DNA of 64,000 nt from Candidatus Deferrimicrobiaceae bacterium. Lineage in GTDB: Bacteria > Desulfobacterota > Deferrimicrobia > Deferrimicrobiales > Deferrimicrobiaceae. The stretch covers positions 64,001 to 128,000 of the forward strand of contig CAWBVY010000009.1 in assembly GCA_963792415.1 (NCBI GenBank), in the 5' to 3' direction. The translations under genes were made by a program, and so were the position numbers. Below are positions 19,332 to 59,355 of the stretch, in pieces. Position 1 is the first letter of the stretch. Each line of letters begins with the position of its first letter. The notes under the pieces are model-generated. The model made no database searches and had not been told where the DNA came from. It worked only from the letters and a program-made list of their open reading frames with translations.

Positions 19332-19973
19332 ATGCGTGAAGTGATCGAGCCTTTCATCGAACACCAGGGCGAGAAACGCGGCTTCTGGCTCAGGAAGCCG
19401 CGGACCATCGGCGAAAAGCTGCTGCTCGCGAAGAAAGGCAGCCCCCTGCGGATTCCCGGTAAAACCGTGATCCTTCTCGATCCCCGGAGCGCGTTCGGCA
19501 CCGGCGGACACGGCACCACGGAAGGGTGCCTCGCCGCGCTCGAAAAGCGCATCAAGGGGGGCGAGACCGTTCTGGATGTCGGAACCGGTACGGGGATCCT
19601 CGCGATCGCGGCGAGTAAACTCGGGGCCGGTCGTGTCACCGCGATCGACATCGACCCGGTCGCCTGCGCGGAAGCCGTGAGGAACATCGCCTTGAACGGA
19701 ATCGGCGACGGGATCGACGTCATCGAGGGCGGGATCGAATCCGCGAAGGATCGATACGACGTCATCGTCGCGAACCTGAGGACTCCCCTCCTCGTCGACC
19801 TCATGGACAGGCTGACGGAACGCCTCGCCGGGCGCGAAGTGGCGATTTTCTCGGGAATCATGGAGATGGAGCTTCATCCCTTCCTGGCGTTCCTCGATGG
19901 GCGTTGCATGGAAACAGTCGAACTGGAGAGGATCGGCGGCTGGATGACGGTGGTCTCGAGAAAGAGACCGTAG
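19332..19973 (+). CDS. prmA: PrmA-like SAM methyltransferase (short, lacks most of the N-terminal domain)
   Basis: DP.SAFGTG.H.TT, LDVGTGTGILAI, DIDP, VANL, SGI, W near the C-terminus. Confidence 0.65.
   Translation: MREVIEPFIEHQGEKRGFWLRKPRTIGEKLLLAKKGSPLRIPGKTVILLDPRSAFGTGGHGTTEGCLAALEKRIKGGETVLDVGTGTGILAIAASKLGAGRVTAIDIDPVACAEAVRNIALNGIGDGIDVIEGGIESAKDRYDVIVANLRTPLLVDLMDRLTERLAGREVAIFSGIMEMELHPFLAFLDGRCMETVELERIGGWMTVVSRKRP
19926..19968 (+). repeat. direct repeat, left copy (prmA-like 3' end); partner 23594-23636
   Basis: 39/43 identity. Confidence 0.85.
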
Positions 19974-20016
19974 GAATACCCTCTTCCGGGTTTTTTCCTC
20001 TCCGGCATTCCGAATT

Positions 20017-21270
20017 TCACAAAAGGCCGGCCGCGTGGGCGATGTTCCGGAGGATCTTCCACTCCTCGCCGATCCGCGTGCGGGCGGAGGCCCACGGGCT
20101 CGGGTCGATCTTCCGGGGCGACCGCCGGGCGCCCACGAGGGCCTCGTAGATCGCGAGCTGTTTCGAGGCGCTCCGCGGCATCGAGAATTCGCGGGCCGTC
20201 GCCTCCACCCCTTCGGCCAAGCGGCGCCGTTCCCCGGGATGCAGCTCCGCTACCCACCGGAGGGCCTCCCGGAAGGCTTCCGCATCGGGACGCGGGACGA
20301 GACGGCCGTTTACCCCGTCCCGCACCACCTCGCGCGCTCCCGGGGCATCGAGCGCCACCACCGGCACCCCGGCCGCCATCGCCTCCGTCAGCACCATCCC
20401 CTGCGTCTCCGTCAACGACGCGAAGGCGAAGACGTCCATCGCCTTGTAAGCGGAGGCGAGTTCGCTGCCTTGCAGCACCCCGCCGGCGTTGATCCGCCCT
20501 GACAGCCCGTGCCGATCGAAGGTTGCGAGAACCTCCCCCTTGGACGCCCCCTCCCCGATCAGGAGGAAACGCCCACTCGGGTACCTCACGAGGAAGCCCG
20601 CCACGGCCTCGGCGAGAAAGCCCATGTTCTTCTCCGGGGCCAGCCGTCCCACGTGGCCCACGACGAACGGGCGGTCCGGGATCCCCGCCGCCCTCCGGTA
20701 GGCGGAACCGTCCGCCCGGTCGAAGAGATCGAGGTCCACACCCGTCGGGATCACGGCGATGGGGGCCGTGACCCCCCTGCGGAGGAGGAGATCCTCGACC
20801 GTCTCGCTCGGCGCGATCACCGCGTCGCAAAGGTTGCAGTACCCGGTCGTGAGATCGATCACGAAACGTTTGAGCTGCGGGGAATCGCCGGGGACGTAAT
20901 GCGTGTATTGCTCGTACATCGTGTGGTGCGTGAACACCACCGGAAGATCCCGGGAGGCCGCGACCCGCAGGGCGGTGTCGCCCAGGAGAAACGGATGATG
21001 GGAGTGGACCACCTGGGGCAGAAACGCCTTCAGGGCCGCGGACACCCCCCGGGTGATCGGGACGGGCACGGCGAAGTCGCTCCCGTTGAAATGCTGCACC
21101 GCGGGCACGCGAACGACGTCCTGCTCCGTCCGGGGCGGCCCCTCGAACTCCGGGGCCACGACGAGGACACGGTGCCCGCTCTCGCGGAACGCTTCCGTGA
21201 ACCTCCGCACGCTGCCGGCCACCCCGCCCACGTGGGGAGTGAACGTGTTCGTAACCATCAGGATGTTCAC
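20017..21270 (-). CDS. GT4 glycosyltransferase
   Basis: GTG start; PHVGGV, HSHHPF, GRLAPEKN, ETQGMVLTEAMAAG. Confidence 0.9.
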   Translation of the reverse strand: MNILMVTNTFTPHVGGVAGSVRRFTEAFRESGHRVLVVAPEFEGPPRTEQDVVRVPAVQHFNGSDFAVPVPITRGVSAALKAFLPQVVHSHHPFLLGDTALRVAASRDLPVVFTHHTMYEQYTHYVPGDSPQLKRFVIDLTTGYCNLCDAVIAPSETVEDLLLRRGVTAPIAVIPTGVDLDLFDRADGSAYRRAAGIPDRPFVVGHVGRLAPEKNMGFLAEAVAGFLVRYPSGRFLLIGEGASKGEVLATFDRHGLSGRINAGGVLQGSELASAYKAMDVFAFASLTETQGMVLTEAMAAGVPVVALDAPGAREVVRDGVNGRLVPRPDAEAFREALRWVAELHPGERRRLAEGVEATAREFSMPRSASKQLAIYEALVGARRSPRKIDPSPWASARTRIGEEWKILRNIAHAAGLL

Positions 21271-23525
21271 GGAGCGGCCTCGGGCTCGAGGAGCATCGAC
21301 CCCTGCCCGGCCGGCGCCTCGACCGCCGCGAAGCCCGGGAGTCTCGCCTCGACGCGAGGGGGGACTCCCCTCCAGGAGCCGCCCCAACGCACCTCCGCCC
21401 GGCGGCCCCTGCGCACGATTTCCACGCGAACCTCGCCGAACGAGGTGGGCGCGGGACCGAGCGAGATCGGGCCTTCCATCTCCAGCCACTCAGGGAGAAT
21501 TCCCGACGCAAGGACCAGCCGCTCCTCCTCCTCCCGGACGAACATGTTCCGGATCATGAGGACCCATTCGGCGGACGCCCACGCGTGCTGTCCATCTCCC
21601 ATGCACCCCCCCCCTGTTCGGGGGTGCACCGCCTCCGGCCATTGCCCCGTTGGAGACGCCAGGTTCGCCACGGTGCGGACCAGTTCCCGAAAACGCCCGT
21701 CCCCGGCGCGGAGCAGGACCTGCGCCATGTGCAGGGTCAGGTACGGGTTGATCCCGGAGTGGATGATGTCCTGGTAGAACCCACCGTTCACCATGCAGTG
21801 GGAGAGGAGAAACTCCGTCGTGTCGAGGAGACGCGCGTCGTGCGGAGCGAAGATCCGCAGCGGATACCCGGCGGCCAGGGAGCCCACGGCTCCGGAGTCC
21901 AGCCGCCTGTGCGGCGACGCGGGCATCCCGGGCCTCCCCAGGCGCAGGGCGACGCGGGAGAGGCTTTTCTCCACGGCTTCGCGGAACTGCCCCGCCTCCT
22001 CCCGGAACGAGGAGGGGTCCGCATCCCCATCCGCCGGAGGAAGCAGCCGGGACGCCGCGTGAAGACCCGCGATCCCCCAGAAATCGTCCCAGTAGTAGTA
22101 GTCGTTAGGGCCAAGATGCTCAGCGCTGAAGCCTGCCGGGAGGAGCCCCGCCTGCAGCTTTTCGTCGTCGGCCGGCAAACGGTTTCTTCGGATCCAGCGC
22201 GCCCCCCTCTCGATCGAGCGCCTCCATTCCGGTTTCGCCGGACGGCCGGTGAGTTCACAGTAGCGCATCAGGGTCCAAAGCGCTTCCCCGTTGGAGTCCC
22301 ACTCGCCATCCTGCGAGTAGTACAGACCGGTGCGGGTCTGCCGCCGCGGGAACGTATCCAGGACCCTTTCCGCCCGATCCGCGAGGCCGAGACAGAGGAG
22401 GGCGTGGAGAATGAAGGACGCGTCCCGGAACCAGAAGCGCTTGTACGTGTAGGGCCCGGGGTAGACCTCCCCCGCCTGCGTGTGAAGGACGAGGTTGCGG
22501 ACGGCCGCATCGAACAGCGACTGCATCCGCTGCCCCGGCAGCCGGAGGGCGGCGACTCCCGACAGGGCACGGTCCCAGCCCGGTGATCCCCGGGAAGAGG
22601 TGCGCGCGCGCTCCTTCCTCTCCGCGGGGACCCGCACCACCGCCTGCCGTTCCCCGCCCCCGCCGATCTCGTACAGCGCCGCCGCCGTGGCCATCCCCAC
22701 GGCGCAGCGTACGCCGTCCCGCGCGTCGCGATCGAGAAGACGGGTATAGACGTCTCCGTTGTGGTAATCCGAGAAGGCGCACCGGTCCGGCGCGGGGTCG
22801 AAGAGCACGGCGTGGCGGTGGCCCACCCTCCAGCCGGCGCCCTGTCCGTCCGCATGGACCTCCTCCACGATGCTCACCCCTTCAGGATTGTACGGGCGAA
22901 GGGCTACCACGAGGTACGCGTCCGACGCGCTCCCCGCCCGGAGGGAGAGGACGCACTCCGGCGAGCCCCCCCGTTCCTCCACGCTCGTGCGCGACAGAAG
23001 CTCCATACCGTCGCATGCGCTGCGGGTCACTACCGAGATGCTGTCTCCCAACTCGAGGTGCTGGTCGACGGCCTGCAGCTTGGAGGGGATGAGGCGGCGC
23101 CCGTCCCTGGCCACAACCCACACGTCGAGCGACCAGCCGTCCCAGAACGGCGTCACCAGGCCTCTCGGATCCACTATGGGAAGCCAGTCGCGGTCCGGCA
23201 CCCCGATCGCGGTCCAGTTGCGATGCGTCAGATTGACGTGGGTGATCGAGAAGGCCCGCGGAATGAAGGCGTCGTCCGCCGGGTCGTACTGGCGCTCCAC
23301 CCAGAAAGGCCAGATCCAGTCCAGGTTGTGCTGGATGGCGCCGGTGTTGAGAAGGCCCCTGGCGTGGAAAACCAGGCCCGCCCGGATCAGTTCAAGCGGC
23401 ACCTTCCCCTCGAGCGGCTGCGCGAAGCTCTCCAGGCGGGAGAGCACCTTCACCGGGTCGATGAGCCCCCGGGCCCGAGCGGCGCGGCTTACGAGAAGCT
23501 TCCAGGGAAACCATCGCAACCACAT
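21267..23525 (-). CDS. six-hairpin glycosidase-like protein of unknown specificity
   Basis: Y..FWFRD, EWDSNG, YYWDDFW, WPE, D..H.W motifs; overlaps GT4 start. Confidence 0.7.
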   Translation of the reverse strand: MWLRWFPWKLLVSRAARARGLIDPVKVLSRLESFAQPLEGKVPLELIRAGLVFHARGLLNTGAIQHNLDWIWPFWVERQYDPADDAFIPRAFSITHVNLTHRNWTAIGVPDRDWLPIVDPRGLVTPFWDGWSLDVWVVARDGRRLIPSKLQAVDQHLELGDSISVVTRSACDGMELLSRTSVEERGGSPECVLSLRAGSASDAYLVVALRPYNPEGVSIVEEVHADGQGAGWRVGHRHAVLFDPAPDRCAFSDYHNGDVYTRLLDRDARDGVRCAVGMATAAALYEIGGGGERQAVVRVPAERKERARTSSRGSPGWDRALSGVAALRLPGQRMQSLFDAAVRNLVLHTQAGEVYPGPYTYKRFWFRDASFILHALLCLGLADRAERVLDTFPRRQTRTGLYYSQDGEWDSNGEALWTLMRYCELTGRPAKPEWRRSIERGARWIRRNRLPADDEKLQAGLLPAGFSAEHLGPNDYYYWDDFWGIAGLHAASRLLPPADGDADPSSFREEAGQFREAVEKSLSRVALRLGRPGMPASPHRRLDSGAVGSLAAGYPLRIFAPHDARLLDTTEFLLSHCMVNGGFYQDIIHSGINPYLTLHMAQVLLRAGDGRFRELVRTVANLASPTGQWPEAVHPRTGGGCMGDGQHAWASAEWVLMIRNMFVREEEERLVLASGILPEWLEMEGPISLGPAPTSFGEVRVEIVRRGRRAEVRWGGSWRGVPPRVEARLPGFAAVEAPAGQGSMLLEPEAAP

Positions 23526-23593
23526 GGCGCACCCCCCGAACCTTCATTATATCGCGGGGGCCCGCAAGGGTCGGAGCATTCCCGGAGCGTATC

Positions 23594-23636
23594 GAAAGGA
23601 TCGGCGGCGGGATGACGGTGGTCTCGAGGAGGAGAC
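23594..23636 (+). repeat. direct repeat, right copy (orphan prmA-like 3' end)
   Basis: GAAAGGATCGGCGGCGGGATGACGGTGGTCTCGAGGAGGAGAC vs 19926-19968. Confidence 0.85.
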
Positions 23637-24013
23637 TACAGGATGTACATTATCCTGATTTTTTCCTCGATCGAGACCCGGAGACCATGGTCCAGCCGGA
23701 GCACCTTTCGAACCGGCGGCAGATCGGGAATCACCCGGATCGAGAGAACGAGGATCCCCACCACCGAGAGGAACCCGAGAAGATTGAACGAGGCGTCGGC
23801 GTTCTCCCTCATCGGTTCGGATCGGACATAGTTCGGAGACGGTTTCGGAAGCTGCAAGGTCCCCATCACGTACGCACCCTGCCACATCAACCGCTCGGCA
23901 GGCACCGAGAATAGCACGCACCCATAGATCACCAGGAGGGCGGCGGCCACCACGGCTCTCCTGATAAAACTCTTCCTCTCGGCTTCGGCGTCGGGATCCA
24001 CGGTTTTCTCCAT
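23636..24013 (-). CDS. hypothetical 2-TM membrane protein
   Basis: GGAGG RBS before ATG 24013; two hydrophobic segments. Confidence 0.55.
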   Translation of the reverse strand: MEKTVDPDAEAERKSFIRRAVVAAALLVIYGCVLFSVPAERLMWQGAYVMGTLQLPKPSPNYVRSEPMRENADASFNLLGFLSVVGILVLSIRVIPDLPPVRKVLRLDHGLRVSIEEKIRIMYIL

Positions 24014-24070
24014 TTCCTCCCGGATATGCGACGGTTCTCCCATATTAGAGCGCTGTCCGACGAAAAAAGT

Positions 24071-24802: not shown

Positions 24803-24841
24803 CGGGCGGGAATCCCCGGATCCACGGTTATCTCTCCCACC

Positions 24842-37794: not shown

Positions 37795-37818
37795 TGCTTG
37801 TACGCTTTGGGGGTGCCG

Positions 37819-47378: not shown

Positions 47379-47450
47379 GCCCCGGTTCACGCCGCATTTC
47401 CGGATGCAATCCTCAACAGCGCCTTCGCGTGGAGAGGAGGATGCGATGTC
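47379..47450 (+). repeat. direct repeat, left copy (orphan promoter/RBS/start of thioesterase); partner 57225-57296
   Basis: 69/72 identity. Confidence 0.9.
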
Positions 47451-47546
47451 CGCCGGCGGGAACCTTTCCCCGAACAAACGCCATCTGTTAATTGGTCCTT
47501 GTCGTACCGAAGGGCCGGGAATCCATTCGGGATCACGGAGAAGCCG

Positions 47547-48275: not shown

Positions 48276-50809
48276 TCCTCCGGCTCGCCGGCCTGCGGCA
48301 CCTTTCCCGGCATCCCCTTCAACTGGCGCTCGGCGTCTTGGGCGTGGCCCTCGGGGTGGCGGCGGTCTTCTCGATCGACCTCGCCAACGAGAGCGCCCGG
48401 CGCGCCTTCCGTATCTCCGCGCAGACCGTCGCCGGGAAAGCGACCCACCGGATCGTGGGGGGTCCTTCCGGGCTGGAAGAGTCGCTCTACGCGACGCTCC
48501 GCCGCCAGGGGGGGATGCGGACGATCGCCCCGGTCGTCGAGGGGTACGCCCGTGTTCCCGGGCATCCCGGGTTCACCCTCCACATCCTCGGGGTCGACCC
48601 GTTCGCGGAGGCCCCGTTCCGGAACTACACGCGGGGGACGGCGGCGGGCGCCGACATCCCCCGCTTCCTGACGCGCCCCGGGGCGGTGCTCCTCCTCGAG
48701 GAAACGGCGAAGCGGATGGGGGTCTCGCCGGGAGACGTTCTTCCGCTACGGGTCGGCCTCGAACCCGCTTACGCCACGCTGTCCGGCTTCCTCCGTCCGG
48801 GGGACGACGTGACCCGCCAGGCGCTGGAGACGACCGCCGTTGCCGACATCGCGACGGCCCAGGAGCTCCTCGGCAAGGTGGGACGTCTGTCCCGGATCGA
48901 CCTTCTGGTCCCCGGGGGGGCCGGGGAAGAGGCGGCCCTTTCCCGGATCCGGGGGAGCCTTCCCCCGGAAGCGGAGATCGTTCCCGCCGGCGCGCGCGGC
49001 AACGCCCTCGACCAGATGACCCGGGCCTTTTCCCTGAACCTGAGCGCCTTGAGCCTCCTCGCCCTCGTGGTCGGCACGTTCCTCGTCTACAACACGATGA
49101 CCTTTTCGGTCCTGCAGCGCCGGCAGCTCGTGGGGACGCTGCGGGCGCTCGGGGTCACCAGGGGGGAGGTGTTCGGGCTGATCCTCTCCGAAGCGGCGGT
49201 CCTCGGCGCGGCGGGGACGGTCCTCGGTCTTCCCCTCGGGTACTTCCTCGGCAAATTCCTCCTGGAGATGGTCACCCGCTCGATCGGGGACCTGTACTTC
49301 GCCCTCTCCGTCCGGGAGGTTTCGGTGACGGCGGCGACGCTCCTCAAGGCCGTCGGCCTTGGGACCTTCGGCGCGGTCGCGGCGGCCCTGGTACCCGCCC
49401 ACGAGGCGACCTCCACCCCGGCCCGGGACGTGATGCGCCGTTCCGCCATCGAGACGGGGGTCCGCAGGATCCTCCCGGCGATATCGGCAACGGGGGCCGG
49501 CCTGATCCTGCTGGGAGCGGGGTTGCAGTTCTACCCCTCCCGAAGCATCCTCCTGTCCTTCGGCGGACTGTTCTCCATCGTGGCGGGGTATGCGCTCCTC
49601 GCGCCGGGCGCGACCACGCTCCTGGTCCGGGGGATCCAGCCGGCGCTGACCGCGGCCTTCGGGACGCAGGGAACGATGGCGGCCCGGAGCATCCCGGCAT
49701 CGATCAGCCGCACGGGGGTGGCGGCCGCCGCCCTCGTGGTGGCCGTGTCCACCACGGTAGGGATCGGGATCATGGTCGGCAGCTTCCGCCGGACGGTCTC
49801 CGACTGGCTCGATCAGTCGCTCCGGTCGGACATCTACGTCTCTTCCGCGGAGGACCGCAGGGGTCCCGAACGAACGCCCCTCCCGCCGGACCTGATCGCG
49901 GGCGTATCCTCCGCCCCCGGGGTCTTCCAGGTCGCACTCGTCAGCCGAACGACCCTCGAGTCCGCCTCGGGGTTCACGGAGCTGTTCGTGATGCGGACCC
50001 CACGGGAGACATTCGACGCCTTCCGCTTCCGCGAGGGAGACGCCCAAACCGCGTGGGAGGCGATGCACGGCGGCGCCGTGATCGTCTCGGACCCGTACGC
50101 GTACCGGCACGGATTGCGGAAGGGGGACACGGTGCGCCTGCGCACCGATCGGGGAGAGCGGGAGTTCCCCATAGCGGGAGTCTATTACGACTACAGCTCG
50201 GACCAGGGGCTGCTGGGGATCCTCGGGGAAACGTACGAACGGTTCTGGGACGACCGGGGCGTGGATTCGATCGGGATCCGGCTCTTGCCCGGGATTCCGG
50301 CCGACGCCGCGATCGGACGGATCCGGGAGATCGCGGGCGACCGGCCGGTCCTGATCCGCTCCAACCGGTCCCTGCGGGAGGCGTCGCTACGGGTCTTCGA
50401 CCGGACCTTCGCGGTGACGAACGTCCTGCGTTTCCTCACGGTCCTCATCGCATTCGTCGGGGTACTGAACGCCCTGATGGCGATCCAGATGGAGCGCGGC
50501 CGGGAGCACGCGGTGCTCCGGGTCCTCGGGCTCACCCCCCGGCAGGCGTGGGGACTGGTCGCGGGGGAGTCCGCCGTGATCGGACTGGTCGCAGGGGTTC
50601 TCGCCGTCCCGCTCGGGGCGGCGCAGGCGCTGGTGCTCATCCGGTTCATCAACCGCCGCTCCTTCGGGTGGACGATGCAGACGTTCGTCGACCCATGGAT
50701 CCTGCTCCAGGCCGTGGCGCTGGCCCTGGCCGCCTCCCTTCTCGCCGGGATCTACCCGGCGACCCGGCTGGCGCGCTCCTCACCCTCGCGGGCGCTGCAG
50801 GAGGAGTGA
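48272..50809 (+). CDS. FtsX/MacB-like ABC permease (duplicated)
   Basis: GTGA overlap; two R...G.LR.LG motifs; two periplasmic domains. Confidence 0.88.
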   Translation: MILRLAGLRHLSRHPLQLALGVLGVALGVAAVFSIDLANESARRAFRISAQTVAGKATHRIVGGPSGLEESLYATLRRQGGMRTIAPVVEGYARVPGHPGFTLHILGVDPFAEAPFRNYTRGTAAGADIPRFLTRPGAVLLLEETAKRMGVSPGDVLPLRVGLEPAYATLSGFLRPGDDVTRQALETTAVADIATAQELLGKVGRLSRIDLLVPGGAGEEAALSRIRGSLPPEAEIVPAGARGNALDQMTRAFSLNLSALSLLALVVGTFLVYNTMTFSVLQRRQLVGTLRALGVTRGEVFGLILSEAAVLGAAGTVLGLPLGYFLGKFLLEMVTRSIGDLYFALSVREVSVTAATLLKAVGLGTFGAVAAALVPAHEATSTPARDVMRRSAIETGVRRILPAISATGAGLILLGAGLQFYPSRSILLSFGGLFSIVAGYALLAPGATTLLVRGIQPALTAAFGTQGTMAARSIPASISRTGVAAAALVVAVSTTVGIGIMVGSFRRTVSDWLDQSLRSDIYVSSAEDRRGPERTPLPPDLIAGVSSAPGVFQVALVSRTTLESASGFTELFVMRTPRETFDAFRFREGDAQTAWEAMHGGAVIVSDPYAYRHGLRKGDTVRLRTDRGEREFPIAGVYYDYSSDQGLLGILGETYERFWDDRGVDSIGIRLLPGIPADAAIGRIREIAGDRPVLIRSNRSLREASLRVFDRTFAVTNVLRFLTVLIAFVGVLNALMAIQMERGREHAVLRVLGLTPRQAWGLVAGESAVIGLVAGVLAVPLGAAQALVLIRFINRRSFGWTMQTFVDPWILLQAVALALAASLLAGIYPATRLARSSPSRALQEE

Positions 50810-51982
50810 ATGTCGCCCCGACGGGTCGCAGGCCTGGCCGCGCTGTGCGCGGCCGCTCTCCTCGCCTCCGGCCTCTTCCTGTGGCGCGCCCTGGCTCCGC
50901 GCCCCGCGCCCTCGTCCCCGGCCGCGTCCGTGACCGCCCTGCTCGGAGGGGAAGAGCCGGGCGGCTTCGCCCGCGCAACCGCCCCCCGCGAATTCCGGTT
51001 CCCGGCCGACCACGGCCCGCACCCGGAGTTCCGGCACGAGTGGTGGTACTTCACCGGCAACCTCCGGGCGGCCGGGGGGCGGCGCTTCGGATACCAGCTC
51101 ACCTTCTTCCGCTTCGCACTCTCCCCCCGCCCTTCCGACCGGCGGTCGCGGTGGGCGACGACCCAGGCGTACATGGCACACTTCGCCGTCACCGATGCGC
51201 AGGGAAACCGGTTCCACCACTTCGAGCGGACCGGGCGCGGCGCCCTCGGACTGGCCGGGGCGACCGCGCGCCCGTTCCGGGTATGGCTCGACGACTGGTC
51301 GGCGGAGGGGGGCGAACCCTCCACCCTGCCGGTCCGCTTGCGAGCCGCTGAAGGAGGTGCGGGGCTCGACCTCGTCCTCGACACCACAAGGGCGATCGTG
51401 CCCCAGGGGGACCGGGGGCTCAGCCGAAAAGGCGCCGCCCCGGGGAACGCGTCGCACTACTACTCGATGACCCGGCTCTCTACCCGCGGAACCGTGCGGG
51501 TCGACGGCGTTTCGTTCCCGGTGGAGGGGAATTCCTGGCTGGACCGCGAATGGGGGACCAGCTCCCTGGAGAAGGGGCAGGTGGGATGGGACTGGTTCGC
51601 CCTTCAGCTGTCGGACGGAAGAGACCTGATGTTCTATCGGCTCCGCCGCGAGGACGGCGGGACCGACCCGTTCAGCGCCGGCACGCTGGTCTTACCGGAC
51701 GGCGCTGTCCGGCCCCTTTCCGGCGACGACGTACGGATCGAGACCCTCGGATACTGGAAGAGCCCGGAGAGCGGTTCGCAGTATCCGTCCCGCTGGCGAT
51801 TGGTGCTCCCGTCCGAAGGGCTGGAGCTGGAAGTCGTCCCTCGCATCGCGGACCAGGAACTGCGGACCGCCGTCCGGTACTGGGAAGGGGCGGTCGGGGT
51901 GCGTGGGACGTCCCGCGGGGAACCGGTCGAGGGGGAAGGGTACGTCGAGCTGACGGGGTACGGGGAGACGGCCGGGCGCTGA
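50810..51982 (+). CDS. AttH/CrtC-like lipocalin-fold protein
   Basis: FP.DHGPH, EWWY.TG, W.DREW, GWDWF, YWEG, GY.ELTGY. Confidence 0.88.
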   Translation: MSPRRVAGLAALCAAALLASGLFLWRALAPRPAPSSPAASVTALLGGEEPGGFARATAPREFRFPADHGPHPEFRHEWWYFTGNLRAAGGRRFGYQLTFFRFALSPRPSDRRSRWATTQAYMAHFAVTDAQGNRFHHFERTGRGALGLAGATARPFRVWLDDWSAEGGEPSTLPVRLRAAEGGAGLDLVLDTTRAIVPQGDRGLSRKGAAPGNASHYYSMTRLSTRGTVRVDGVSFPVEGNSWLDREWGTSSLEKGQVGWDWFALQLSDGRDLMFYRLRREDGGTDPFSAGTLVLPDGAVRPLSGDDVRIETLGYWKSPESGSQYPSRWRLVLPSEGLELEVVPRIADQELRTAVRYWEGAVGVRGTSRGEPVEGEGYVELTGYGETAGR

Positions 51983-51987
51983 CCGGA

Positions 51988-52009
51988 CTATCGCCTCGCC
52001 GCAACCCGT
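51988..52009 (+). repeat. orphan copy of PEP-utiliser 3' end; partner 53391-53412
   Basis: CTATCGCCTCGCCGCAACC identical for 19 bp, 21/22 overall. Confidence 0.7.
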
Positions 52010-52055
52010 CGGGATCTTGGGAATCCAATGGAAGGGATCTCCTTCGGAAAGGGTA

Positions 52056-52646
52056 GTGAACCGCGTGAAACCGTTGATTGCCGCCGCGGCCGGGTGGACC
52101 CTGGGGATGCTGGTCACGGCTTGCGGGCCGTCATTGCCGCCCCTGGAGACCGTTCCGCGAGTCGATATCCCCCGCTTCATGGGGGACTGGTACGTGATCG
52201 CCAACATCCCGACGTGGATCGAGGAGGGGGCGCACAACGCCGTCGAGTCGTACCGACTGGACGCGGACGGGACGATCGTGACGACGTTCACCTTCCGCAA
52301 GGGAGGGTTTGACGGCCCCGTGAAAACGTACAACCCCAGGGGCTTCGTCCTCGATCCCGCTTCCAATGCCACGTGGGGAATGCAATTCCTGTGGCCGTTC
52401 AAGGCCGAGTACCTGATCATCTACCTCAACGAGGATTACACCCAGACCGTCATCGGGCGGAGCAAGCGCGACTACGTCTGGATCATGGCCCGGACCCCCG
52501 ATATGGGGGAGGTGGACTACCGGCGGATCACGGACTGGCTGGGCACCCTTGGCTACGACACCGGCCGGCTCCGCCGGATCCCGCAGCGCTGGCCGGATTC
52601 ACCGAAAGACCCGGCCTCGGGGCCGTTGGAAGGGTCGGGCAGGTGA
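52056..52646 (+). CDS. blc: bacterial lipocalin lipoprotein (Blc-like)
   Basis: Lipobox-like VTAC; VD..RFMG.WY.IA; Y.WIMARTP. Confidence 0.85.
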   Translation: MNRVKPLIAAAAGWTLGMLVTACGPSLPPLETVPRVDIPRFMGDWYVIANIPTWIEEGAHNAVESYRLDADGTIVTTFTFRKGGFDGPVKTYNPRGFVLDPASNATWGMQFLWPFKAEYLIIYLNEDYTQTVIGRSKRDYVWIMARTPDMGEVDYRRITDWLGTLGYDTGRLRRIPQRWPDSPKDPASGPLEGSGR

Positions 52647-52666
52647 CGATTGGTGCAACCGGGGGA

Positions 52667-53326
52667 ATGTGCGTGGAGAACGGCCGGATACGATTTCGTC
52701 CTACCCGCGGGAGGATCGGGAAAACGTTTCTACCCGTCCTGGTAATTGCCGCGTTTTTCCTTGGGGGGTGCGCCACGGTGCCCGAGCCGTCCCACAAAGT
52801 CTTGTCGAGGAACGACGGCTACGAGGTGCGGGAGTATTCCGGGTATCTTGTGGCCGAAACCACCGTGTCGGGGCCGTGGAAGGAGTCCCTCAACGAAGGG
52901 TTCCGCCGCCTTTTCTCCTACATTTCAGGGAACAACGAGGGCCGTGCCAAGGTGGCGATGACCGCTCCCGTCCTCTCCGGCGAGCCGGAGAAGATCGCGA
53001 TGACGGCACCTGTGCTCCAGGAGACGGGGACCGGCGACCTGCAGGTCGTCTCCTTCATCGCCCCGTCCTCCTACACGTTGGAAACGATCCCGGTGCCCAA
53101 GGACCCGCGGATCCGAATCCGGCAGGTCCCACCCTTCATCGCGGCGGTCCTCCGTTACGGCGGCTGGACCGATCCGGAAACGATCGAAAGGAAAACCGGA
53201 GAGCTTCGATCCATGCTCTCCCGGGATGGGAAAACCCCGGTCCCGCCGTTCCTTTCCGCTCAATACAACCCGCCGTGGACGATTCCCCCGTTCCGGCGCA
53301 ACGAGATCATCGTCAGGATCCGTTGA
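52667..53326 (+). CDS. SOUL heme-binding lipoprotein
   Basis: LGGC lipobox; YEVR.Y, F.RLF.YI.G.N, MTAPV, YNPPW..P..RRNE; start approximate. Confidence 0.88.
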   Translation: MCVENGRIRFRPTRGRIGKTFLPVLVIAAFFLGGCATVPEPSHKVLSRNDGYEVREYSGYLVAETTVSGPWKESLNEGFRRLFSYISGNNEGRAKVAMTAPVLSGEPEKIAMTAPVLQETGTGDLQVVSFIAPSSYTLETIPVPKDPRIRIRQVPPFIAAVLRYGGWTDPETIERKTGELRSMLSRDGKTPVPPFLSAQYNPPWTIPPFRRNEIIVRIR

Positions 53327-53390
53327 CCTCCGGAACCTTTCCCGCGATCCACCCATCGGTTCAAGGAAAAAGGACGGGCCCGGATCGGGC

Positions 53391-55595
53391 CTATCGCCTC
53401 GCCGCAACCGGTATGTCGCAAGACGCCTCATGCCCCAGGCGGGTGACGATCCCCAGGTAGCCGTCCACCGACACCGTGTCGCCGGTCCGGATCCGGTGAA
53501 CGGCGTCGGGAACCCCGGTGACGCAGGGGATCCCGTACTCCCTTGCGATGATCGCACCGTGGATCAGCATCCCGCCCCGCCGCTCGACGACCGCGCTTGC
53601 CAGGGGAATCGCGAACGTCATGTTCGGATCCACCGCGTCGCAGACCAGGACCTCTCCGGCCCGCAGGGAAAAGAGGTCGGCGGTCTTGTGAACGACCCGG
53701 GCGGGACCCCGGGCGTACCCCGGCCCCGCGGGGTGGCCCACGAGTTGCCTGTCCCGTTGGAGAAAGGACGGAGTCTCCATCACGGGAGGAATATCATCGC
53801 CGGGGGGAGCCGACGGTTCGTTGAGCGTCTCGATCGTATCCCCCGGCCCGTTTCGGACGACCCCATCCCAGGATCCGCCGGAAGCCCTTTGCCGCCGCTC
53901 CTCGACCGCACGTGCCAGAGCGGAGTGCAGCCGGCCAAGGCAGATGTTGTCGTCGTCCCGGAGCCGATAACAGTCCCGGGCCAGTTCGAGGAGATCCGCC
54001 GCGAAGTTCCGGGCCTCGCCGTCGAACCGGGAGAGAAACCGTTCGCGCCGCGCCGCGTCGTCCTCGGCGCTTCCCCTGGATGCCCCGGGCGGACGACGGG
54101 ACATCTCAAGGAGGATGGAAAGGACCCCTCTCCGACCGGCCTCGCTCCCTGCGGAGCCGAAGAAGTCGCCATATTCCAGGAACAAGTGCCCGACCCGGGT
54201 CTCGAAATCCGTGTCGCCTCTCCCGTCGGTGCCGACGCGTTCCGCAAGATTCCGTTCGGTGCGCAGGCGCTCCGCAAGCTCGCCCAGCAGGGCATTCCGC
54301 TCGAGAGAGAGCATTCCGGTCCCGGAGAGGAGCAGGGTGAATTCGAAGGGATCCTCGGGAGCGACCGCGTCGTTGTAGAACTGGCCGAAGAGCCGAATGC
54401 CGTGCGCCAGGGGGATGAACTCGCTCTTGTAGATCCCCTCCCATTTCTTCACCACCCCCTCGCGGCGCCGGATCTCCTCCGCCAGCTCCCCGTCGGCGAG
54501 GGCCGGAAGGTCGACTGAGGCCAGCTCCTCGGCCTCGCGACCCATCGCGGGAAGGAGTTCCGCCTCGACCCGGGCCCGGAGGTTTTTCAGGTTGCCGAAG
54601 CTGCGCTTGAGGCTCAGGTACCAGGACCTGTTGTCGCTGCCGTCCGGCGTCGCCCGGGTCGTGACGGGGCGGGACTGGAGGACGTGAAGCACACCGCATG
54701 CGATGCACCACTCCACATCCTGGGGGGAGCCGAAGAACTCCTCCGCCGCAAGGGCCAGGCGGAACACGTCGCACGCTTCGTCATCCGAGATGGGAGGCCG
54801 GCCCGACAGATTCGGTGGAAGGTCCGACAGAGCGGTCCCGGCAGGTCCGGGTACGACCCGTTTTTCCCGGACCGGGGCATGATGGTCGACCACCCTCCCC
54901 GTGCTCCGGTGGAGTGTCCACCGGTCCGGCTCCACCGTGCCGTCCACCAGACCTTCGTTCAGCCCCCAGACCGACTCCACGACGGCCGCGGCCGGGTCGA
55001 ACGGACTCATCCCGAACACGACCCCCGACCGCTCCGCGGGGACCATCTCCTGGACGAGGACCGCCATTTCGCTTCCGGCCGGCGTCAGCCCCAGCTCTTT
55101 CCGATACAGCAGCGCCCGGTCCGACCAGAGGGAAGCGAAGACCCGTCGCACGCTGTCCAGCACGGCGTCCGGACCCTTGACGTTCAGAAACGATTCGTGC
55201 AATCCCGCAAACGAGGCCTTCACCCCGTCCTCCCCCGGGGCCGAGGAACGCACCGCCACCGGACGGTCTCCGAACACCGACCGGATCCCCTCCCGCAGCG
55301 CTGCTCCCTGTTCGATCGGCCACGCGGTCCGGTCAAACAGCGTGCGGATCCGAAGCGCCGCGTCCCAGATCTCCTCCCACCGCATGTCCTCGAACCGCTT
55401 GCGCCCAAGTTCCCGTGCGATCGCCCCGCGCAAGCCGCCCGAATCGACGAATCGGGAGTACGCTTCGGTCGTCACGCAAAGGGCCTGCGGTATGTTGAAT
55501 CCGGCCATTCCGAGACGCGCCAGCGCCAGGGCCTTGCCGCCGACAAGGGTGCGTTCCTCCACCACCGTCCGGTCGATGGGAAGAAGATCCCTCAT
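53391..55595 (-). CDS. PEP/pyruvate-binding (ATP-grasp) plus PEP-utiliser His-domain protein (Rph-like architecture)
   Basis: GGKA..L, VRSSA..ED...SFAG, DVEW, LQSRPVT, GG.L.HGAIIAREYGIP. Confidence 0.85.
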   Translation of the reverse strand: MRDLLPIDRTVVEERTLVGGKALALARLGMAGFNIPQALCVTTEAYSRFVDSGGLRGAIARELGRKRFEDMRWEEIWDAALRIRTLFDRTAWPIEQGAALREGIRSVFGDRPVAVRSSAPGEDGVKASFAGLHESFLNVKGPDAVLDSVRRVFASLWSDRALLYRKELGLTPAGSEMAVLVQEMVPAERSGVVFGMSPFDPAAAVVESVWGLNEGLVDGTVEPDRWTLHRSTGRVVDHHAPVREKRVVPGPAGTALSDLPPNLSGRPPISDDEACDVFRLALAAEEFFGSPQDVEWCIACGVLHVLQSRPVTTRATPDGSDNRSWYLSLKRSFGNLKNLRARVEAELLPAMGREAEELASVDLPALADGELAEEIRRREGVVKKWEGIYKSEFIPLAHGIRLFGQFYNDAVAPEDPFEFTLLLSGTGMLSLERNALLGELAERLRTERNLAERVGTDGRGDTDFETRVGHLFLEYGDFFGSAGSEAGRRGVLSILLEMSRRPPGASRGSAEDDAARRERFLSRFDGEARNFAADLLELARDCYRLRDDDNICLGRLHSALARAVEERRQRASGGSWDGVVRNGPGDTIETLNEPSAPPGDDIPPVMETPSFLQRDRQLVGHPAGPGYARGPARVVHKTADLFSLRAGEVLVCDAVDPNMTFAIPLASAVVERRGGMLIHGAIIAREYGIPCVTGVPDAVHRIRTGDTVSVDGYLGIVTRLGHEASCDIPVAARR

Positions 55596-56044
55596 CGGCG
55601 GACGTGGAGTTCCGAAACGGACTGGAAACGGGTGACGACGTAGTAGGCTTCCACTTCGACACGGAAGATGGCGCAGTTCGGCGATCGGGCGAATGACGAA
55701 AGATAAGGATGTTTCCCGAGGAACAAGGTGAGACAGGCCTCCCTCTCCTCCCCTGTTGCCTCACGGGCATTCCCCAGGATGGTTGCCGCGGCGGCCTCGG
55801 CGAAGTCCTCCTCGCGGTTTCCCCGGTTGTCCACGAGGAGGGATACTCGCGCGTTTTCGGAAAGGTTCGAGAATTTCCGGGTGGGGCGGGGGGTGGCGAA
55901 AACCAGGGCCTTCAGATCCGGTGCCGCGGCGAATGCGATCAGGCTCGAGTAGGGATTCCCCTGGGCCTCCGTCGCGAGGACCGCCAGTCGTTGCGAGGAC
56001 AGAAGTTCCTTGACGATCCGCTCCAACGCATGTGCGTCCTCCAT
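55592..56044 (-). CDS. pyridoxamine 5'-phosphate oxidase-family protein
   Basis: LAT, PY.SL, T...TRK..NL..N..VSL; ATGA overlap with PEP-utiliser. Confidence 0.85.
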   Translation of the reverse strand: MEDAHALERIVKELLSSQRLAVLATEAQGNPYSSLIAFAAAPDLKALVFATPRPTRKFSNLSENARVSLLVDNRGNREEDFAEAAAATILGNAREATGEEREACLTLFLGKHPYLSSFARSPNCAIFRVEVEAYYVVTRFQSVSELHVRR

Positions 56045-56081
56045 CCCGCCCCCCTTGTCGTTTCCGTCGTGCGTCCCCGGA

Positions 56082-56576
56082 CTAAGGACGTTTCTTCTCC
56101 ATTTCGTCGAGTTTCTTCAGCAACTCCTTGTTCTTCGGGACTCCGCGCACGGCGTATCGGACGATCCCCGTCCTGTCGATGATGAAAGTGATGCGATCCT
56201 GTCCCCCGTAAAGGTTCATGACCCTGCCCTCCGGATCCGCGATCAACGGATACCTGATCCCGTATTTTTTCGCGAACTCCTTGTGGGTACCGATGGTGTC
56301 GCTGCTGACGCCCAGGACCTGGGCGTTGCGCCTTTCGAATTTGGCGAGGTCCGCCTGAAAGGCCTGCATTTCCCCCGTTCAAACGGGGGAAAAGTCCGCG
56401 TAGTAGATCGCCAGGACGACATTCCTCTGCCCGAGGAAATCCGACAGACGCACGGTTCCCGTCGTGGATTCGGCCTCGAACGACGGGGCGTTCGCTCCAG
56501 CTTCCGGGGCCGCTGCCCAAAGGGGTTGGGCGAACAGGACGGCGAAAAACAGCGCCAGGATCGTCTTAGGGTTCAT
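56082..56576 (-). CDS. secreted peroxiredoxin (AhpC/TSA, BCP-like), probable selenoprotein with UGA at 56381-56379
   Basis: Two in-frame ORFs joined as YADFSPV-UGA-TGEMQAF, with UGA at the peroxidatic Cys position; VLGVS.D, R.TFIID follow. Confidence 0.85.
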
Positions 56577-56703
56577 CCTTCATCCTCCTTTCCGCTCGCA
56601 TGGTTATAAGAGATGCCCAGGTCGGCAAAGGTTCCGGCCCCCGGCGCTGGCCGGAATCCCGGAACTACGATGTGGGGGTCCCCCCACGGCTGGTGAAACC
56701 GGG

Positions 56704-57174
56704 TTACCGTCGGAACGCTTCGTACGCGACGACCAGGACCGTACCTTCCAGAAGGACCAGAAGGTTGACGCCCATCGAGATCCCGTGGAGTCGGGAAAAT
56801 TCCTTGCGGGCGGGACCCCCGGGGGGGGCGGTCTCGAAGGAAGGCGCCGATCGCTTCACCTGCTCCATTCGCGGCACGAGCCCGAACGCCTGGTAGCCGG
56901 TCAAAAGAATCGCCGTCGCGATCAGGAGGGTCCCGACCCATTGACGCGCGCCGTGGAACGCCTCCCCGGCGGCGATGCGGGCCAGCAGGGCGAGGGCGGC
57001 GAGCACGAGCCCGTAGCGGAAATATACGGGGAAGATCGACCCCACGACCTTTCCCGCGGCGTCCCTCCCCTGCGTGCGGAAGATCACCGGGGTCACGACG
57101 AACGTGAACAGCGCGATTCCCCCCACCCATAGGGAGAGGGCAAGCCGGCACACGGCGGAAGCGAGGATCATCAC
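56704..57174 (-). CDS. DUF4149/TMEM205-like membrane protein
   Basis: W.GG, P.IF, AG.....FP.YF, F..LH..S...N. Confidence 0.8.
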   Translation of the reverse strand: MMILASAVCRLALSLWVGGIALFTFVVTPVIFRTQGRDAAGKVVGSIFPVYFRYGLVLAALALLARIAAGEAFHGARQWVGTLLIATAILLTGYQAFGLVPRMEQVKRSAPSFETAPPGGPARKEFSRLHGISMGVNLLVLLEGTVLVVAYEAFRR

Positions 57175-57224
57175 CGCAAGGCCTCCTTATTCGTCAAGGT
57201 GCCTGTACGATGTATCCGGGAGGC

Positions 57225-57296
57225 GCCCCGGTTCACGCCGCATTTCCGGATACAATCCTCAATAGCGCCTTCGCGCGGAGAGGAGGATGCGATGTC
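57225..57296 (+). repeat. direct repeat, right copy; upstream region, RBS and start of thioesterase
   Basis: Contains TACAAT, GGAGAGGAGG and ATG 57292. Confidence 0.9.
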
Positions 57297-57765
57297 TGAG
57301 GATTCGAAGCCGGTATCGGCAACCCGCCTGGTGATGGCGCAGGAGATGACGCCCCAGGACGCGAACCCCGCGGGGAACGTCCACGGGGGGAATATCATGA
57401 AGATGGCCGACTCGGCCGCCGGGGTGGTGTCGATCCGCCACTCCGGGCGGAACTGCGTCACCGCCGTCGTCGACCGGTTCATGTTCCACGCTCCCGTCTT
57501 CGTCGGAAACCTCGTGCTCGTTTTCGCCTCGCTGAACTATGTCGGGCGCACCTCCATGGAGGTGGGGGTCCGCGTGGAAGCGGAAGATCCGCGCACGGGG
57601 AAGCGGATCCACACGAACTCGTCCTATTTCGTCATGGTCGCCCTGGACGATTCGGGGCGTCCGGCCGAGGTCCCGCAGCTCATCCTCGAGACGGACGAGG
57701 ACCGCCGCCGGAACAAGGAGGCCCGGCAGCGGGCGAGCGACCGGCAGCTGCGAAAGAAAAAGTAG
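57292..57765 (+). CDS. hotdog acyl-CoA thioesterase (YciA-like)
   Basis: P.DAN..GNVHGG, CVT, GRTSMEVGV, F.MVALD..G.P. Confidence 0.92.
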   Translation: MSEDSKPVSATRLVMAQEMTPQDANPAGNVHGGNIMKMADSAAGVVSIRHSGRNCVTAVVDRFMFHAPVFVGNLVLVFASLNYVGRTSMEVGVRVEAEDPRTGKRIHTNSSYFVMVALDDSGRPAEVPQLILETDEDRRRNKEARQRASDRQLRKKK

Positions 57766-57778
57766 TGCGGGCGGAAGG

Positions 57779-58036: not shown

Positions 58037-59075
58037 CGCGGGTCATCACCATCTCGAACACCTCGCCCGCGTAGGCGTGGATGTTGCGGCGCATCTCGAT
58101 CAGGTACCGCTCGATCTCGGGCCACTCCTTCCGGATCGCCGTTCTCTGCGCGGCATAGGCCGCCTCGTACTCCTGCCGCATCTTGTCGTGCAGCCGCACC
58201 CGCCTCGACGGGTCGTCCGGGTACGCCTTCTTCGGGAGGAACTCGTAGATCGGCTCGAAGATCCGGACGTCGGTCTCCTCCAGGTGGAACAGCTCGATGT
58301 TGTCGATCATCACCACGTCCTTCTTCGGGGTGGCAACGTAGTGCCCGTAGCGCAGCGCCGTTCCGATGCAGTCCCCCAGGGCGTCCTGCCGGGCCGCGCC
58401 CGCGACCCACCAAACGCCGTCGCGGTTGATCCGGGCGAGGGTCACCGAATCGTCGTGGTATATGTTGATCCCCTCCTCCTTCGGCTTCAGGAGCACCTCC
58501 TCGCCCTGCGGTGTCACGTGGTAGACGGTCGGGAGGGCGGGCAGCCCCACCAGCTTCGGCAGGCCGCTGTAGATGTGCTCTCCCATGCACCCGAACCGGG
58601 AGAGGTAGATGTCGCGTTCCTTCCCTTCCGGCGTCCGCACCGTGAAGAGCGTGTCCTTGTGGACCTTCTCGATCAGCAGGACCTCGGTGACCTCGAAGTC
58701 GCGGTGCTGCTCCCCCGTCATCGCGTGGAGCAGCGTCAAGATCGCCTTTTTCAGCCCCGTCGCCTTGAACTTGGAGGTGAAGATCTTCACCCGCGCCTGG
58801 GCCGGCATCATCCGGATCGCGCCGCGCACCCAGTTGACGTAGGAGTGGGAAATGCTGATCGGGAGCATGTCGGTGCTGGTCGGGTCGAGGAGTTCGTCGA
58901 TCTTCGCTTCCCAGAGCGGGATGTGCATGCCGAGGAACTCCTGCGGGTTCTCGACCCCGAGGGCCCTGAGGATCTTCTCCCTGTCCTCGGTCTTCCGCTC
59001 GGCGGCGGGCGTCTGGAAGTAGCGGTTCAGGGTCCGCTCGTACTTCTGCAGGGCGGAGTGGGAAGAAGACATCAT
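58011..59075 (-). CDS. hypothetical protein, HipA/PI3K-like kinase fold with degenerate catalytic motifs
   Basis: GC3-rich 354-aa ORF with RBS; E...S.L..L.GLP, D.IG..LRY.HY, VMIDN..LF spacing. Confidence 0.6.
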   Translation of the reverse strand: MMSSSHSALQKYERTLNRYFQTPAAERKTEDREKILRALGVENPQEFLGMHIPLWEAKIDELLDPTSTDMLPISISHSYVNWVRGAIRMMPAQARVKIFTSKFKATGLKKAILTLLHAMTGEQHRDFEVTEVLLIEKVHKDTLFTVRTPEGKERDIYLSRFGCMGEHIYSGLPKLVGLPALPTVYHVTPQGEEVLLKPKEEGINIYHDDSVTLARINRDGVWWVAGAARQDALGDCIGTALRYGHYVATPKKDVVMIDNIELFHLEETDVRIFEPIYEFLPKKAYPDDPSRRVRLHDKMRQEYEAAYAAQRTAIRKEWPEIERYLIEMRRNIHAYAGEVFEMVMTRVKAQVFSG

Positions 59076-59131
59076 TGCCCTCCCGGCCGTTGGAGTGGGA
59101 ACCTCCTGATCTTATCACCGGCGGCGACTTG

Positions 59132-59355
59132 TTAGCGTGATCCCTTTGCAAGTTCCTCGAGGGTAGCCGCCAGGGGGCCACCCCTCGACATCGATGAGGC
59201 ATGAGCGGGGGTACCCCCGTTAGCGGCTCCCCTTTGTAAGTTCCTCAAGGGTGTCGTCAGGGGGGCACCCCTCGACATCGATGAGGCATGAGCGGGGGTA
59301 ATCCCTTCAGCGGCTCCCCTTTGTGAGTTCCTCGAGGGTAGCCGCCAGGGGACCA
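59132..59355. repeat. about 2.5 copies of an 87-88 bp unit (Kef 3' end plus invariant 35-bp element)
   Basis: Units start at 59132, 59220 and 59307; CACCCCTCGACATCGATGAGGCATGAGCGGGGGTA identical at 59179 and 59266. Confidence 0.9.

Follow-up and report, generated by a model that had tools for sequence, protein, structure and literature searches.

Gene-end direct repeats around recombinase-free accessory cassettes in a Candidatus Deferrimicrobiaceae genome

How do blocks of accessory genes come to lie between long direct copies of the end of a neighbouring gene, when no recombinase travels with them? The question is raised by a 64,000-nucleotide stretch of contig CAWBVY010000009.1 from a Candidatus Deferrimicrobiaceae bacterium (G000:C9:64001-128000, hereafter the window), in which four such repeats, cases (i) to (iv), accompany a PrmA-like methyltransferase gene, a thioesterase gene, a phosphoenolpyruvate (PEP)-utiliser gene and a Kef-type antiporter gene (Table 1). 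A sequence-only reading of the window had grouped them as one candidate system, a sequence-independent and gene-preserving route of acquisition. The source genome, G000, comprises 2.84 Mb in 11 contigs and, like every relative found, is metagenome-assembled; the relatives, numbered G0xx, carry the labels Candidatus Deferrimicrobium, Deferrimicrobiaceae and 'Deltaproteobacteria bacterium CSP1-8'. Comparisons within the genus included G000 and 27 other genomes (28 species), and the search for case (i) covered 40 other genomes.

The answer favoured here, at a probability of roughly 60%, is that the repeats are scars left where cassettes were gained or replaced, anchored by homology and without a recombinase, at hypervariable intergenic hot spots between conserved genes. 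All four repeats were recovered at, or a few bases from, the positions first given for them. Protein families were assigned with Pfam and NCBIfam to the 46 proteins predicted between 17935 and 61319, and Pfam agreed with the gene names of the sequence-only reading, with the reservations that the supposed glycosidase of case (i) matched neither database and that the PrmA-like protein scored under the NCBIfam equivalog cut-offs.

Repeated gene ends and their cargo in the window

The PrmA-like protein of case (i) covers positions 106-295 only of the PF06325 profile, the N-terminal part of the profile being absent. The 43-nt core of its repeat extends to 75 nt at 79% identity, including one 32-nt stretch in which 31 positions match. 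A single copy of the repeat without cargo was found in two of the genomes searched, G018 (L007) and G014 (L006), where the PrmA-like gene is followed directly by orf135, the resident right-hand neighbour. The ancestral terminator-like hairpin is retained in the displaced copy of G000 and, in a manual count on the alignment, the downstream part of the displaced copy agrees with the G018 empty site at 25 of 28 positions and that of the gene-attached copy at only about 17. The cargo (window 20027-23571), which contains a GT4-family glycosyltransferase gene, is 78-85% identical to a two-gene block of G017, G015, G010 and G011, which occupies other contexts there and for which a comparison of junctions found no flanking repeats. 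The native flank of the block in G017 has a word of 10-11 nt, and no more, in common with the end of the PrmA-like gene. When a native site of the block was sought in G000, its flanks turned up on C6 with 16.5 kb between them, without a clear empty site; among the genomes searched, structure (i) as a whole was seen in G000 alone. A sevenfold contrast in divergence within repeat (i), obtained by splitting it at a conserved word, was dropped, as the split at the stop codon gives a contrast of about twofold, which is not decisive. The 752-aa cargo protein might be glycoside-hydrolase-like, of the (alpha/alpha)6 type, which is a lead only, drawn from language-model feature matches to MGH1-like_GH and Bac_rhamnosid6H clusters at ranks 16-30.

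Repeat (ii) comprises the promoter region, ribosome-binding site and first two codons of the thioesterase gene, and its two copies of 72 nt, 96% identical, lie 9846 nt apart. The genus has two types of sequence upstream of this gene, S1 after a DUF4149 gene and S2 after a gene Z and 171 nt, which start to resemble each other near window position 57248. The order in G020 is Z, 171 nt, an S2-type copy with the first thioesterase codons (about 65-70 nt), ABC, FtsX, CrtC, DUF4149, an S1-type copy and the thioesterase gene, and the arrangement in G002 is alike with a displaced copy of 79 nt. In both genomes the displaced copy is of S2 type upstream and the gene-attached copy of S1 type, and their mutual similarity starts at the S1/S2 boundary, indicating that the two copies are two alleles and that the repeat starts where the gene orders start sharing. 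The single-copy counterpart exists in state-2 genomes such as G017, G013, G021 and G011, in which the flank of Z and 171 nt is joined directly to one promoter copy. The length of the repeat at this site is about 65-70 nt in G020, 72 nt in G000, 79 nt in G002 and 265 nt in G001, the last being a separate event with other cargo. The ABC operon stands behind a copy of the thioesterase promoter in G000, G002 and G020, via different joints, and this placement may be promoter capture; the identity of the ABC/permease block to its counterparts is 92-93% for G002 and G020 and 85% for G017 and G023. The duplicated thioesterase ATG at 47445 shares its frame with the open reading frame (ORF) of the ABC ATPase (47445-48275).

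Repeat (iii), nested in (ii), is likewise real, with 19 exact nucleotides in place of the 22 first described. The segment from Lipocalin_2 to AhpC is absent from G002 and G020, and none of the 27 other genus genomes matched the DNA of the PEP-utiliser, PNPOx and AhpC genes (E<=1e-8). Remnants of this segment's genes were met all the same, as G002 has 75 nt of the PEP-utiliser 3' end after CrtC, though the gene itself is absent, and 3' end remnants of the SOUL gene stand before the ABC gene in G002 (26 nt) and G020 (10 nt). At its left edge (52035-52056), the Lipocalin_2-SOUL cassette carries the final ~22 nt of a different gene, and a further copy of the cassette at G000:C9:11161-12000 stands there with the complete upstream gene.

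The array of case (iv), A-B-A-B-A, has a period of 87-88 nt and 2.5 units, A (48-49 nt) being the last 15 codons and stop of the Kef-type gene and B a sequence of 38-39 nt. One Kef end is present in G017, two (A-B-A) in G001, G002 and G024, and three in G000; with head-to-tail units whose number varies among relatives, the array qualifies as a variable-number tandem repeat. The two B units of G000 resemble different alleles, one G001-like and the other G024-like. The 39-nt B unit has no other full-length copy in the genome and has a short palindrome in common with a dispersed repeat family. Judged from these alleles, the array would go back to an old insertion-duplication of 87 nt and would have grown later as alleles recombined out of register, which describes the locus better than the three Kef-end copies, real as they are, around a small element.

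The family scan of the 46 window proteins returned no integrase, resolvase or transposase, PF00589 and PF00239 had no match in the window, and no recombinase or transposase was found among 46 proteins of the other cassettes described below and their flanks, in line with the initial view that the cargo carries none. Elsewhere in G000 there are five PF00589 matches above the cut-off, some of them beside other repeats, and neither a serine recombinase (PF00239) nor Ku was found in that genome. Inverted matches between cargo ends reached 7-8 nt at best in nine of nine cases, and in the six with matched controls they were at or near the control mean and well below the maximum. With regard to integron cassettes, which would call for an IntI integrase with attI and for attC at both ends of a cassette, no shared motif was seen by eye at the cassette ends, and the repeats of different sites have no core in common, as had been supposed. 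The loci thus lack the transposase and terminal inverted repeats of insertion sequences and transposons, and their duplications measure 19-265 nt; of the marks of an integrase island, the restored gene end and its displaced copy are present, and the recombinase and fixed crossover core are absent.

Recurrence across the genome and the genus

Exact direct repeats of at least 19 nt, 300-15000 nt apart, are expected 0.75 times per genome; 279 runs were seen in G000 (paralogues included), against 17 inverted runs under the same criteria. Self-BLAST for pairs 20-300 nt long and 0.3-15 kb apart returned 172 direct and 49 inverted pairs, of which 30 and 4 remained after removal of multi-copy families and of paralogues (pairs in which both copies occupy the same frame of their genes), a filter that cost 142 direct pairs including three real cases (C2 11209, C7 8956 and C4 462975). 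With genes predicted by a dicodon caller, whose stop codons are exact and starts approximate, a gene 3' end is touched by 11 of the 30 direct pairs, where 4.3 +/- 1.8 are expected (none of 200 random relocations reached 11), and 5' ends are touched by 2, where 4.5 are expected. The enrichment at gene termini expected from the window was therefore borne out for 3' ends and failed for 5' ends.

At least six further loci in G000 (cases a, b, d, e, f and k; Table 1) have the same build of an intact gene, a repeat, recombinase-free cargo and a displaced gene end. A restored target end with a diverged copy on the far side is seen in cases (i), (iii), a, b, d, e, f and k, and the density is at least ten loci in 2.8 Mb. 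Relatives with single-copy empty sites were found for cases (i), (ii), (iv), a and k. Two of the three refuting conditions set for the initial proposal were thus covered, and both outcomes, the 3' end enrichment and these empty sites, favour it; they support a gene-preserving route of acquisition without a recombinase in the cargo.

The site of case a, between the convergent XFP and PGM genes, is empty in G004, G019 and G023 among the 27 relatives and is filled with different cargo, plus a displaced copy of the XFP end, in G000, G021, G016 and G002. The displaced XFP end starts at a different position in each genome (90510 in G000, 90527 in G021, 90528 in G016, 90546 in G002 and 90520 in G006), and G002 has an additional nested copy of 44 nt of the PGM 3' end. 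Remnants of the XFP end measure 54 nt in G006 and 153 nt in G042, in neither of which was a high-identity full-length XFP found, and cargo without a repeat occupies the site in G014, G009, G017 and G007. Judging by these sequences, the site has been filled independently in at least five species, with different cargo and a different inner boundary each time. The displaced copy of G000 has lost its stop codon, and five of its six differences are non-synonymous; a comparison of the alleles shared by displaced XFP copies yielded no information.

At the site of case k, G018 has a single copy and no cargo, G012 is filled and has a repeat like that of G000, and G014 is filled with a remnant of 13 nt only; the original stop is kept in the displaced copy, and the gene has gained a new tail. 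The 10-kb cargo of case d matched the DNA of the 27 other genus genomes in short stretches only, at 66-75% identity. Its left flank lies ~600 nt from the mutase gene in G021, G017 and G042, and downstream of the methylmalonyl-CoA mutase gene all relatives examined differ, the flank of the displaced copy matching no resident type.

Possible origin of the repeats and rival explanations

In the scheme that we infer, with its order of events, donor, route of DNA entry and linear or circular intermediate, DNA would come from a related lineage with a different gene order beside the same conserved gene and would pair homologously with that gene on one side. The other side would be closed by an illegitimate or out-of-register joint, some tens to a few hundred bases inside the resident gene end, which would amount to homology-facilitated illegitimate recombination (HFIR), whose illegitimate joints are expected at GC-rich microhomologies of 3-8 nt, or, equivalently, to Campbell-type insertion-duplication of a circularised fragment. 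The intact gene end would then derive from the incoming allele, and the resident end would be left beyond the cargo as a short displaced copy that afterwards decays. Only short repeats would persist, presumably because long ones would recombine and delete the cargo. Among the mechanisms offered by the sequence-only reading, HFIR and single-crossover integration of circles both fit and are mutually indistinguishable here, and a trans-acting recombinase fits poorly. Its notion of a dedicated system found no support, the repeats being best read as a by-product of homology, nor did a sequence-independent route, as the outer boundary is the end of shared sequence and the inner boundary varies with the event.

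Inner boundaries that vary, an outer boundary at the end of shared sequence, the two allele types of G002 and G020 and the orphan remnants argue against a recombinase with a fixed core and, for those events, against target duplication by staggered cuts as well. An explanation of the former kind would hold the cassettes to be decayed or non-autonomous integrative elements, similar to cis-mobilisable ones, which carry a spare gene end and were moved by tyrosine recombinases encoded elsewhere, with the repeats as attL and attR. The restored 3' end with its displaced copy is indeed the architecture of integrase islands, two integrase-free cassettes of G000 are bracketed by tRNA-like 3' ends (Table 1), and some of the PF00589 matches adjoin other repeats. 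We nevertheless regard it as unlikely, in that the inner boundary differs among events at one site, the repeat length varies at the thioesterase site, the sites have no common core, no serine recombinase and no integrase remnant in any cargo were found, at least ten different targets would face four or five recombinases, and the cargo of (i) is just two genes that elsewhere are repeat-free. Widely staggered target cuts (19-265 nt), with ligation of foreign DNA and fill-in, would give duplications identical at birth. The near-identity of young pairs (97% over the 76 nt of case d, 96% in case (ii)), the lineage-specific bases common to both copies in G000 (ii) and in G001, and the 39-nt filler of (iv) between 48-nt duplicates speak for such an origin, which is still very unlikely given that the G002 and G020 copies are different allele types whose similarity starts at the synteny boundary, that in (i) the displaced copy is, in its downstream part, much closer to the sequence of the empty site than the gene-attached copy is, and that no Ku was found; to our knowledge, no machinery exists for so wide a stagger.

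The four cases might also have no common cause and have been grouped by eye, (iv) arising by slippage or unequal crossing-over, (iii) by microhomology-mediated deletion or insertion, (ii) by promoter duplication and (i) from an old island. The behaviour of (iv) as a variable-number tandem repeat with one, two or three copies among relatives, the mere 19 nt of (iii) and the position of (ii) at a 5' end, where enrichment is lacking, agree with this view, which the significant 3' end enrichment, the ratio of 30 direct to 4 inverted pairs and the same build at six or more further G000 loci and at the same sites in other species make rather improbable. An assembly artefact, in which strain variants were joined in series, can be given hardly any weight. 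The metagenomic origin of all genomes, the range of contig GC in G000 (0.596 to 0.672) and the restriction of structure (i) to that genome would suit it, but independent assemblies of related species share (ii) (G002 and G020) and (iv) (A-B-A in G001, G002 and G024) and, in G012, case k, and the junctions of cargo and repeat join unrelated sequence, so that no shared k-mer could have created them.

Several observations weigh against homology-anchored cassette gain as the origin of the repeats. No sampled genome has the GT4 block natively beside the PrmA-like gene, the donor arrangement that it presupposes, and the mismatches of repeat (i), split at the stop codon, differ modestly (7 of 48 coding and 9 of 27 downstream positions, counted manually). 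Both copies of (ii) in G000 are of S1 type and have lineage-specific bases in common, as do the two copies in G001; by their sequences, these pairs point to duplication within the lineage or would need later gene conversion. Since the ABC-side joint in G000 also differs from that in G002 and G020, case (ii) would represent either a further event or one that was homogenised later. Most substitutions of the G000 displaced XFP copy occur in no other allele and speak of its decay, not of its origin. Repeats are present in 4 of the 12 XFP/PGM loci examined, with remnants in two more, and with conserved flanks on both sides of this site ordinary double crossovers should dominate, so that the repeat-bearing share is not fully explained. 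Case f yielded no empty site. A boundary of the HFIR type, at which similarity ends where the gene orders stop sharing, speaks for the favoured reading and was shown for the G002/G020 event only. As to DNA uptake, ComEC and DprA are present in G000, which agrees with that reading but is not specific, because 10-11 of 14 control genomes match them too.

A bolder idea, which we consider unlikely, is that any gene end with its terminator could act in this lineage as a portable attachment site, cassettes looping out as one-copy circles and reinserting at the same gene end in related genomes without a dedicated recombinase, perhaps RecA-independently as reported for the H47 island of E. coli. If true, cassettes would be generally mobile without a recombinase, and this mobility would assemble, at convergent gene ends, the flexible part of the Ca. 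Deferrimicrobium genome.

Relation to known systems and further features

Integrase islands, prophages and cis-mobilisable elements insert in the 3' ends of tRNA and protein genes and carry a replacement end. The cassettes of G000 resemble them in that the target gene is intact and a diverged copy of its 3' end stands beyond the cargo; they differ in that the cargo neither contains nor adjoins an integrase gene, that the core is not fixed and that repeat length varies at one site. In Campbell-type insertion-duplication, a circle with one homologous segment leaves its cargo between two copies of that segment. This would equally let a repeat-flanked cassette loop out and reinsert, but it needs a circular intermediate carrying the gene end, for which the 87-nt unit of (iv) is too small.

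In HFIR, one homologous anchor and one illegitimate joint import foreign DNA without a recombinase (de Vries & Wackernagel 2002; Prudhomme et al. 2002; Meier & Wackernagel 2003, as cited in PMC2884548). It would explain why repeats stop where shared sequence stops, why their inner boundaries vary and why remnants occur without a partner; the classical accounts, as represented in that citing paper, stress insertion with deletion in the recipient and not a retained duplicate of the anchor as seen here. Touzain et al. 2010 (PMC2884548) describe 10-18% of small variable segments as repeat-flanked, with empty alleles in other strains; they interpret the repeats, 66-94% of which are <30 bp, chiefly as substrates for deletion, and, citing the experimental HFIR papers, propose homology-assisted illegitimate recombination (HFIR) for dimorphic small variable segments (legend of Figure 7a). 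Those segments and the present ones are alike in being short, variable and tied to fixed loci, in their direct repeats and in the existence of empty alleles, whereas here the repeats are gene-end copies of 19-265 nt and species of a genus are compared, there strains of a species.

According to the abstracts, the microcin H47 island of E. coli has extensive imperfect direct repeats and encodes no recombinase, and experiments demonstrated its RecA-independent excision and integration, with recombination in several identity segments (Azpiroz et al. 2011, PMC3191183; Azpiroz & Lavina 2017, PMC5426353). Extensive imperfect direct repeats and the lack of an island recombinase are found here too. The differences are that mobility was established by experiment for the island, the present cassettes being known from sequence, and that the abstracts do not present its repeats as duplicated ends of an adjacent gene. 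A process of this kind is thus already known, and what is unusual is its density and recurrence at the same sites across a genus. Compared with the published cases, the repeats are longer, are copies of gene ends, are frequent (at least 10 loci in 2.8 Mb) and occupy the same sites across the genus. A literature search found no paper on this pattern in this lineage and nothing closer than the works cited, which is not proof of absence.

Accessory genes in bacterial hot spots mostly come without a recognisable mobile element, and their arrival is usually inferred. The 28 species compared in this genus offer an unusually dense and legible record of empty sites, independent fills of one site, remnants of various lengths and copies assignable to two alleles, so that population reads could directly test how much one-sided homologous recombination, circle integration and deletion each contribute. 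For annotation, the loci are a warning that long direct gene-end repeats alone do not indicate an integrase-borne island.

Table 1. Positions of target genes, repeats and cargo in the window (plain coordinates), with further cassettes of G000 (contig coordinates where given)
Feature	Position	Strand	Remarks
PrmA-like methyltransferase, target gene (i)	19332-19973	+	intact ORF, 213 aa; PF06325, E 8.5e-46
Repeat (i), gene-attached copy	19926-20000		last 48 nt of PrmA-like gene and 27 nt downstream
GT4-family glycosyltransferase, cargo (i)	20017-21270	-	Pfam Glyco_transf_4, Glycos_transf_1
752-aa protein, cargo (i)	21267-23525	-	no Pfam or NCBIfam match
Repeat (i), displaced copy	23594-23668		overlaps 3' end of orf135; terminator-like hairpin 23639-23657
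orf135	23636-24043	-	resident neighbour at empty site (i)
Repeat (ii), displaced copy	47379-47450
ABC ATPase	47547-48275	+	Pfam
FtsX/MacB-type permease	48272-50809	+	Pfam
CrtC-type double lipocalin	50810-51982	+	Pfam CrtC, Lipocalin_9
Repeat (iii), displaced copy	51988-52006		19 nt; PEP-utiliser 3' end remnant adjoining CrtC stop
Lipocalin_2 and SOUL cassette	52035-53333	+	Pfam; Lipocalin_2 52056-52646, SOUL 52667-53326
PPDK_N/PEP-utiliser, target gene (iii)	53391-55595	-	Pfam; own terminator-like hairpin 53391-53377 (terminator scan)
Repeat (iii), gene-attached copy	53391-53409		begins at PPDK_N/PEP-utiliser stop codon
PNPOx	55592-56044	-	Pfam
AhpC, two ORFs	56082-56369, 56379-56576	-	Pfam
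DUF4149	56704-57174	-	Pfam; native upstream neighbour of thioesterase in state 1 relatives
Repeat (ii), gene-attached copy	57225-57296
4HBT thioesterase, target gene (ii)	57292-57765	+	PF03061
Tandem array A-B-A-B-A (iv)	59142-59355		3' end of Kef-type gene
Kef-type K+/H+ antiporter, target gene (iv)	59307-61319	-	Pfam; with TrkA_N, TrkA_C
Case a			phosphoketolase (XFP) 3' end; repeat 60 nt; cargo 4.5 kb
Case b			sigma-54 response regulator 3' end; repeat 72 nt; cargo TRAP transporter and malonyl-CoA decarboxylase
Case d			methylmalonyl-CoA mutase 3' end; repeat 76 nt, 97%; cargo 10-kb glycosyltransferase cluster
Case e			metallo-beta-lactamase-fold gene 3' end; repeat 42 nt; cargo MscS-type channel
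Case f			ABC permease 3' end; repeat 208 nt; cargo chaperone-usher operon
Case k			Na/H exchanger end; repeat 42 nt; cargo DUF2254 gene
TANGO2 and rhomboid cassette	C6:60722-63598		tRNA-like 3' end, 43 nt at 100%; copies 60722/63556
Phosphoribosyltransferase and adenine deaminase cassette	C7:214139-217677		tRNA-like 3' end, 38 nt at 97%; copies 214139/217640

The tRNA-like 3' ends that bracket the last two cassettes of Table 1, both small and integrase-free, were recognised by eye. Cargo genes recur across different hot spots: the XFP/PGM hot spot of G043 contains a SOUL homologue (G043:C311:11418-28957), and a SOUL fragment lies beside remnants of the case f ABC permease gene in G014 (G014:C130:44430-46208). 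In the second Lipocalin_2-SOUL copy of G000 (C9:11161-12000), Lipocalin_2 is 95% identical and SOUL has an internal deletion of ~465 nt; its surroundings contain repeats of 145-250 nt (C9 3553/7273/12223) and an integrase fragment (C9:3272-3415). Of the two AhpC/peroxiredoxin ORFs, the downstream one matches profile positions 45-123 only, the gene being probably split by a stop or frameshift.

The palindrome within the B unit of (iv) is GGGGTACCCC, around which a dispersed family of ~60-nt repeats is built, with 65 occurrences in the genome against 10.7 expected, 48 of them intergenic. The family, which looks like the REP/BIME type, often forms tandem arrays with a period of ~60 (for example C4:72386-72634, C5:73459-73644 and C6:631542-631698) and accounts for many intergenic repeat pairs; within the window, the palindrome alone is present, at 59208-59217.

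A 63-nt direct repeat at 92% identity pairs 12759-12821, inside a minus-strand gene of 554 aa, with the intergenic 15033-15095, 2.3 kb away, both away from gene termini. On C1, two copies (177557-177720 and 180835-180997, 87% identical) of a 165-nt element with inverted ends, which looks MITE-like, flank genes for SelA, a GntR regulator and a sugar-phosphate isomerase-like protein, and an HNH endonuclease gene adjoins. Two ECF-type sigma factor genes (37798-38373 and 41351-41923), 3.5 kb apart with 71 nt at 72% identity and a zf-HC2 anti-sigma gene after the second, are paralogues and belong outside the finding.

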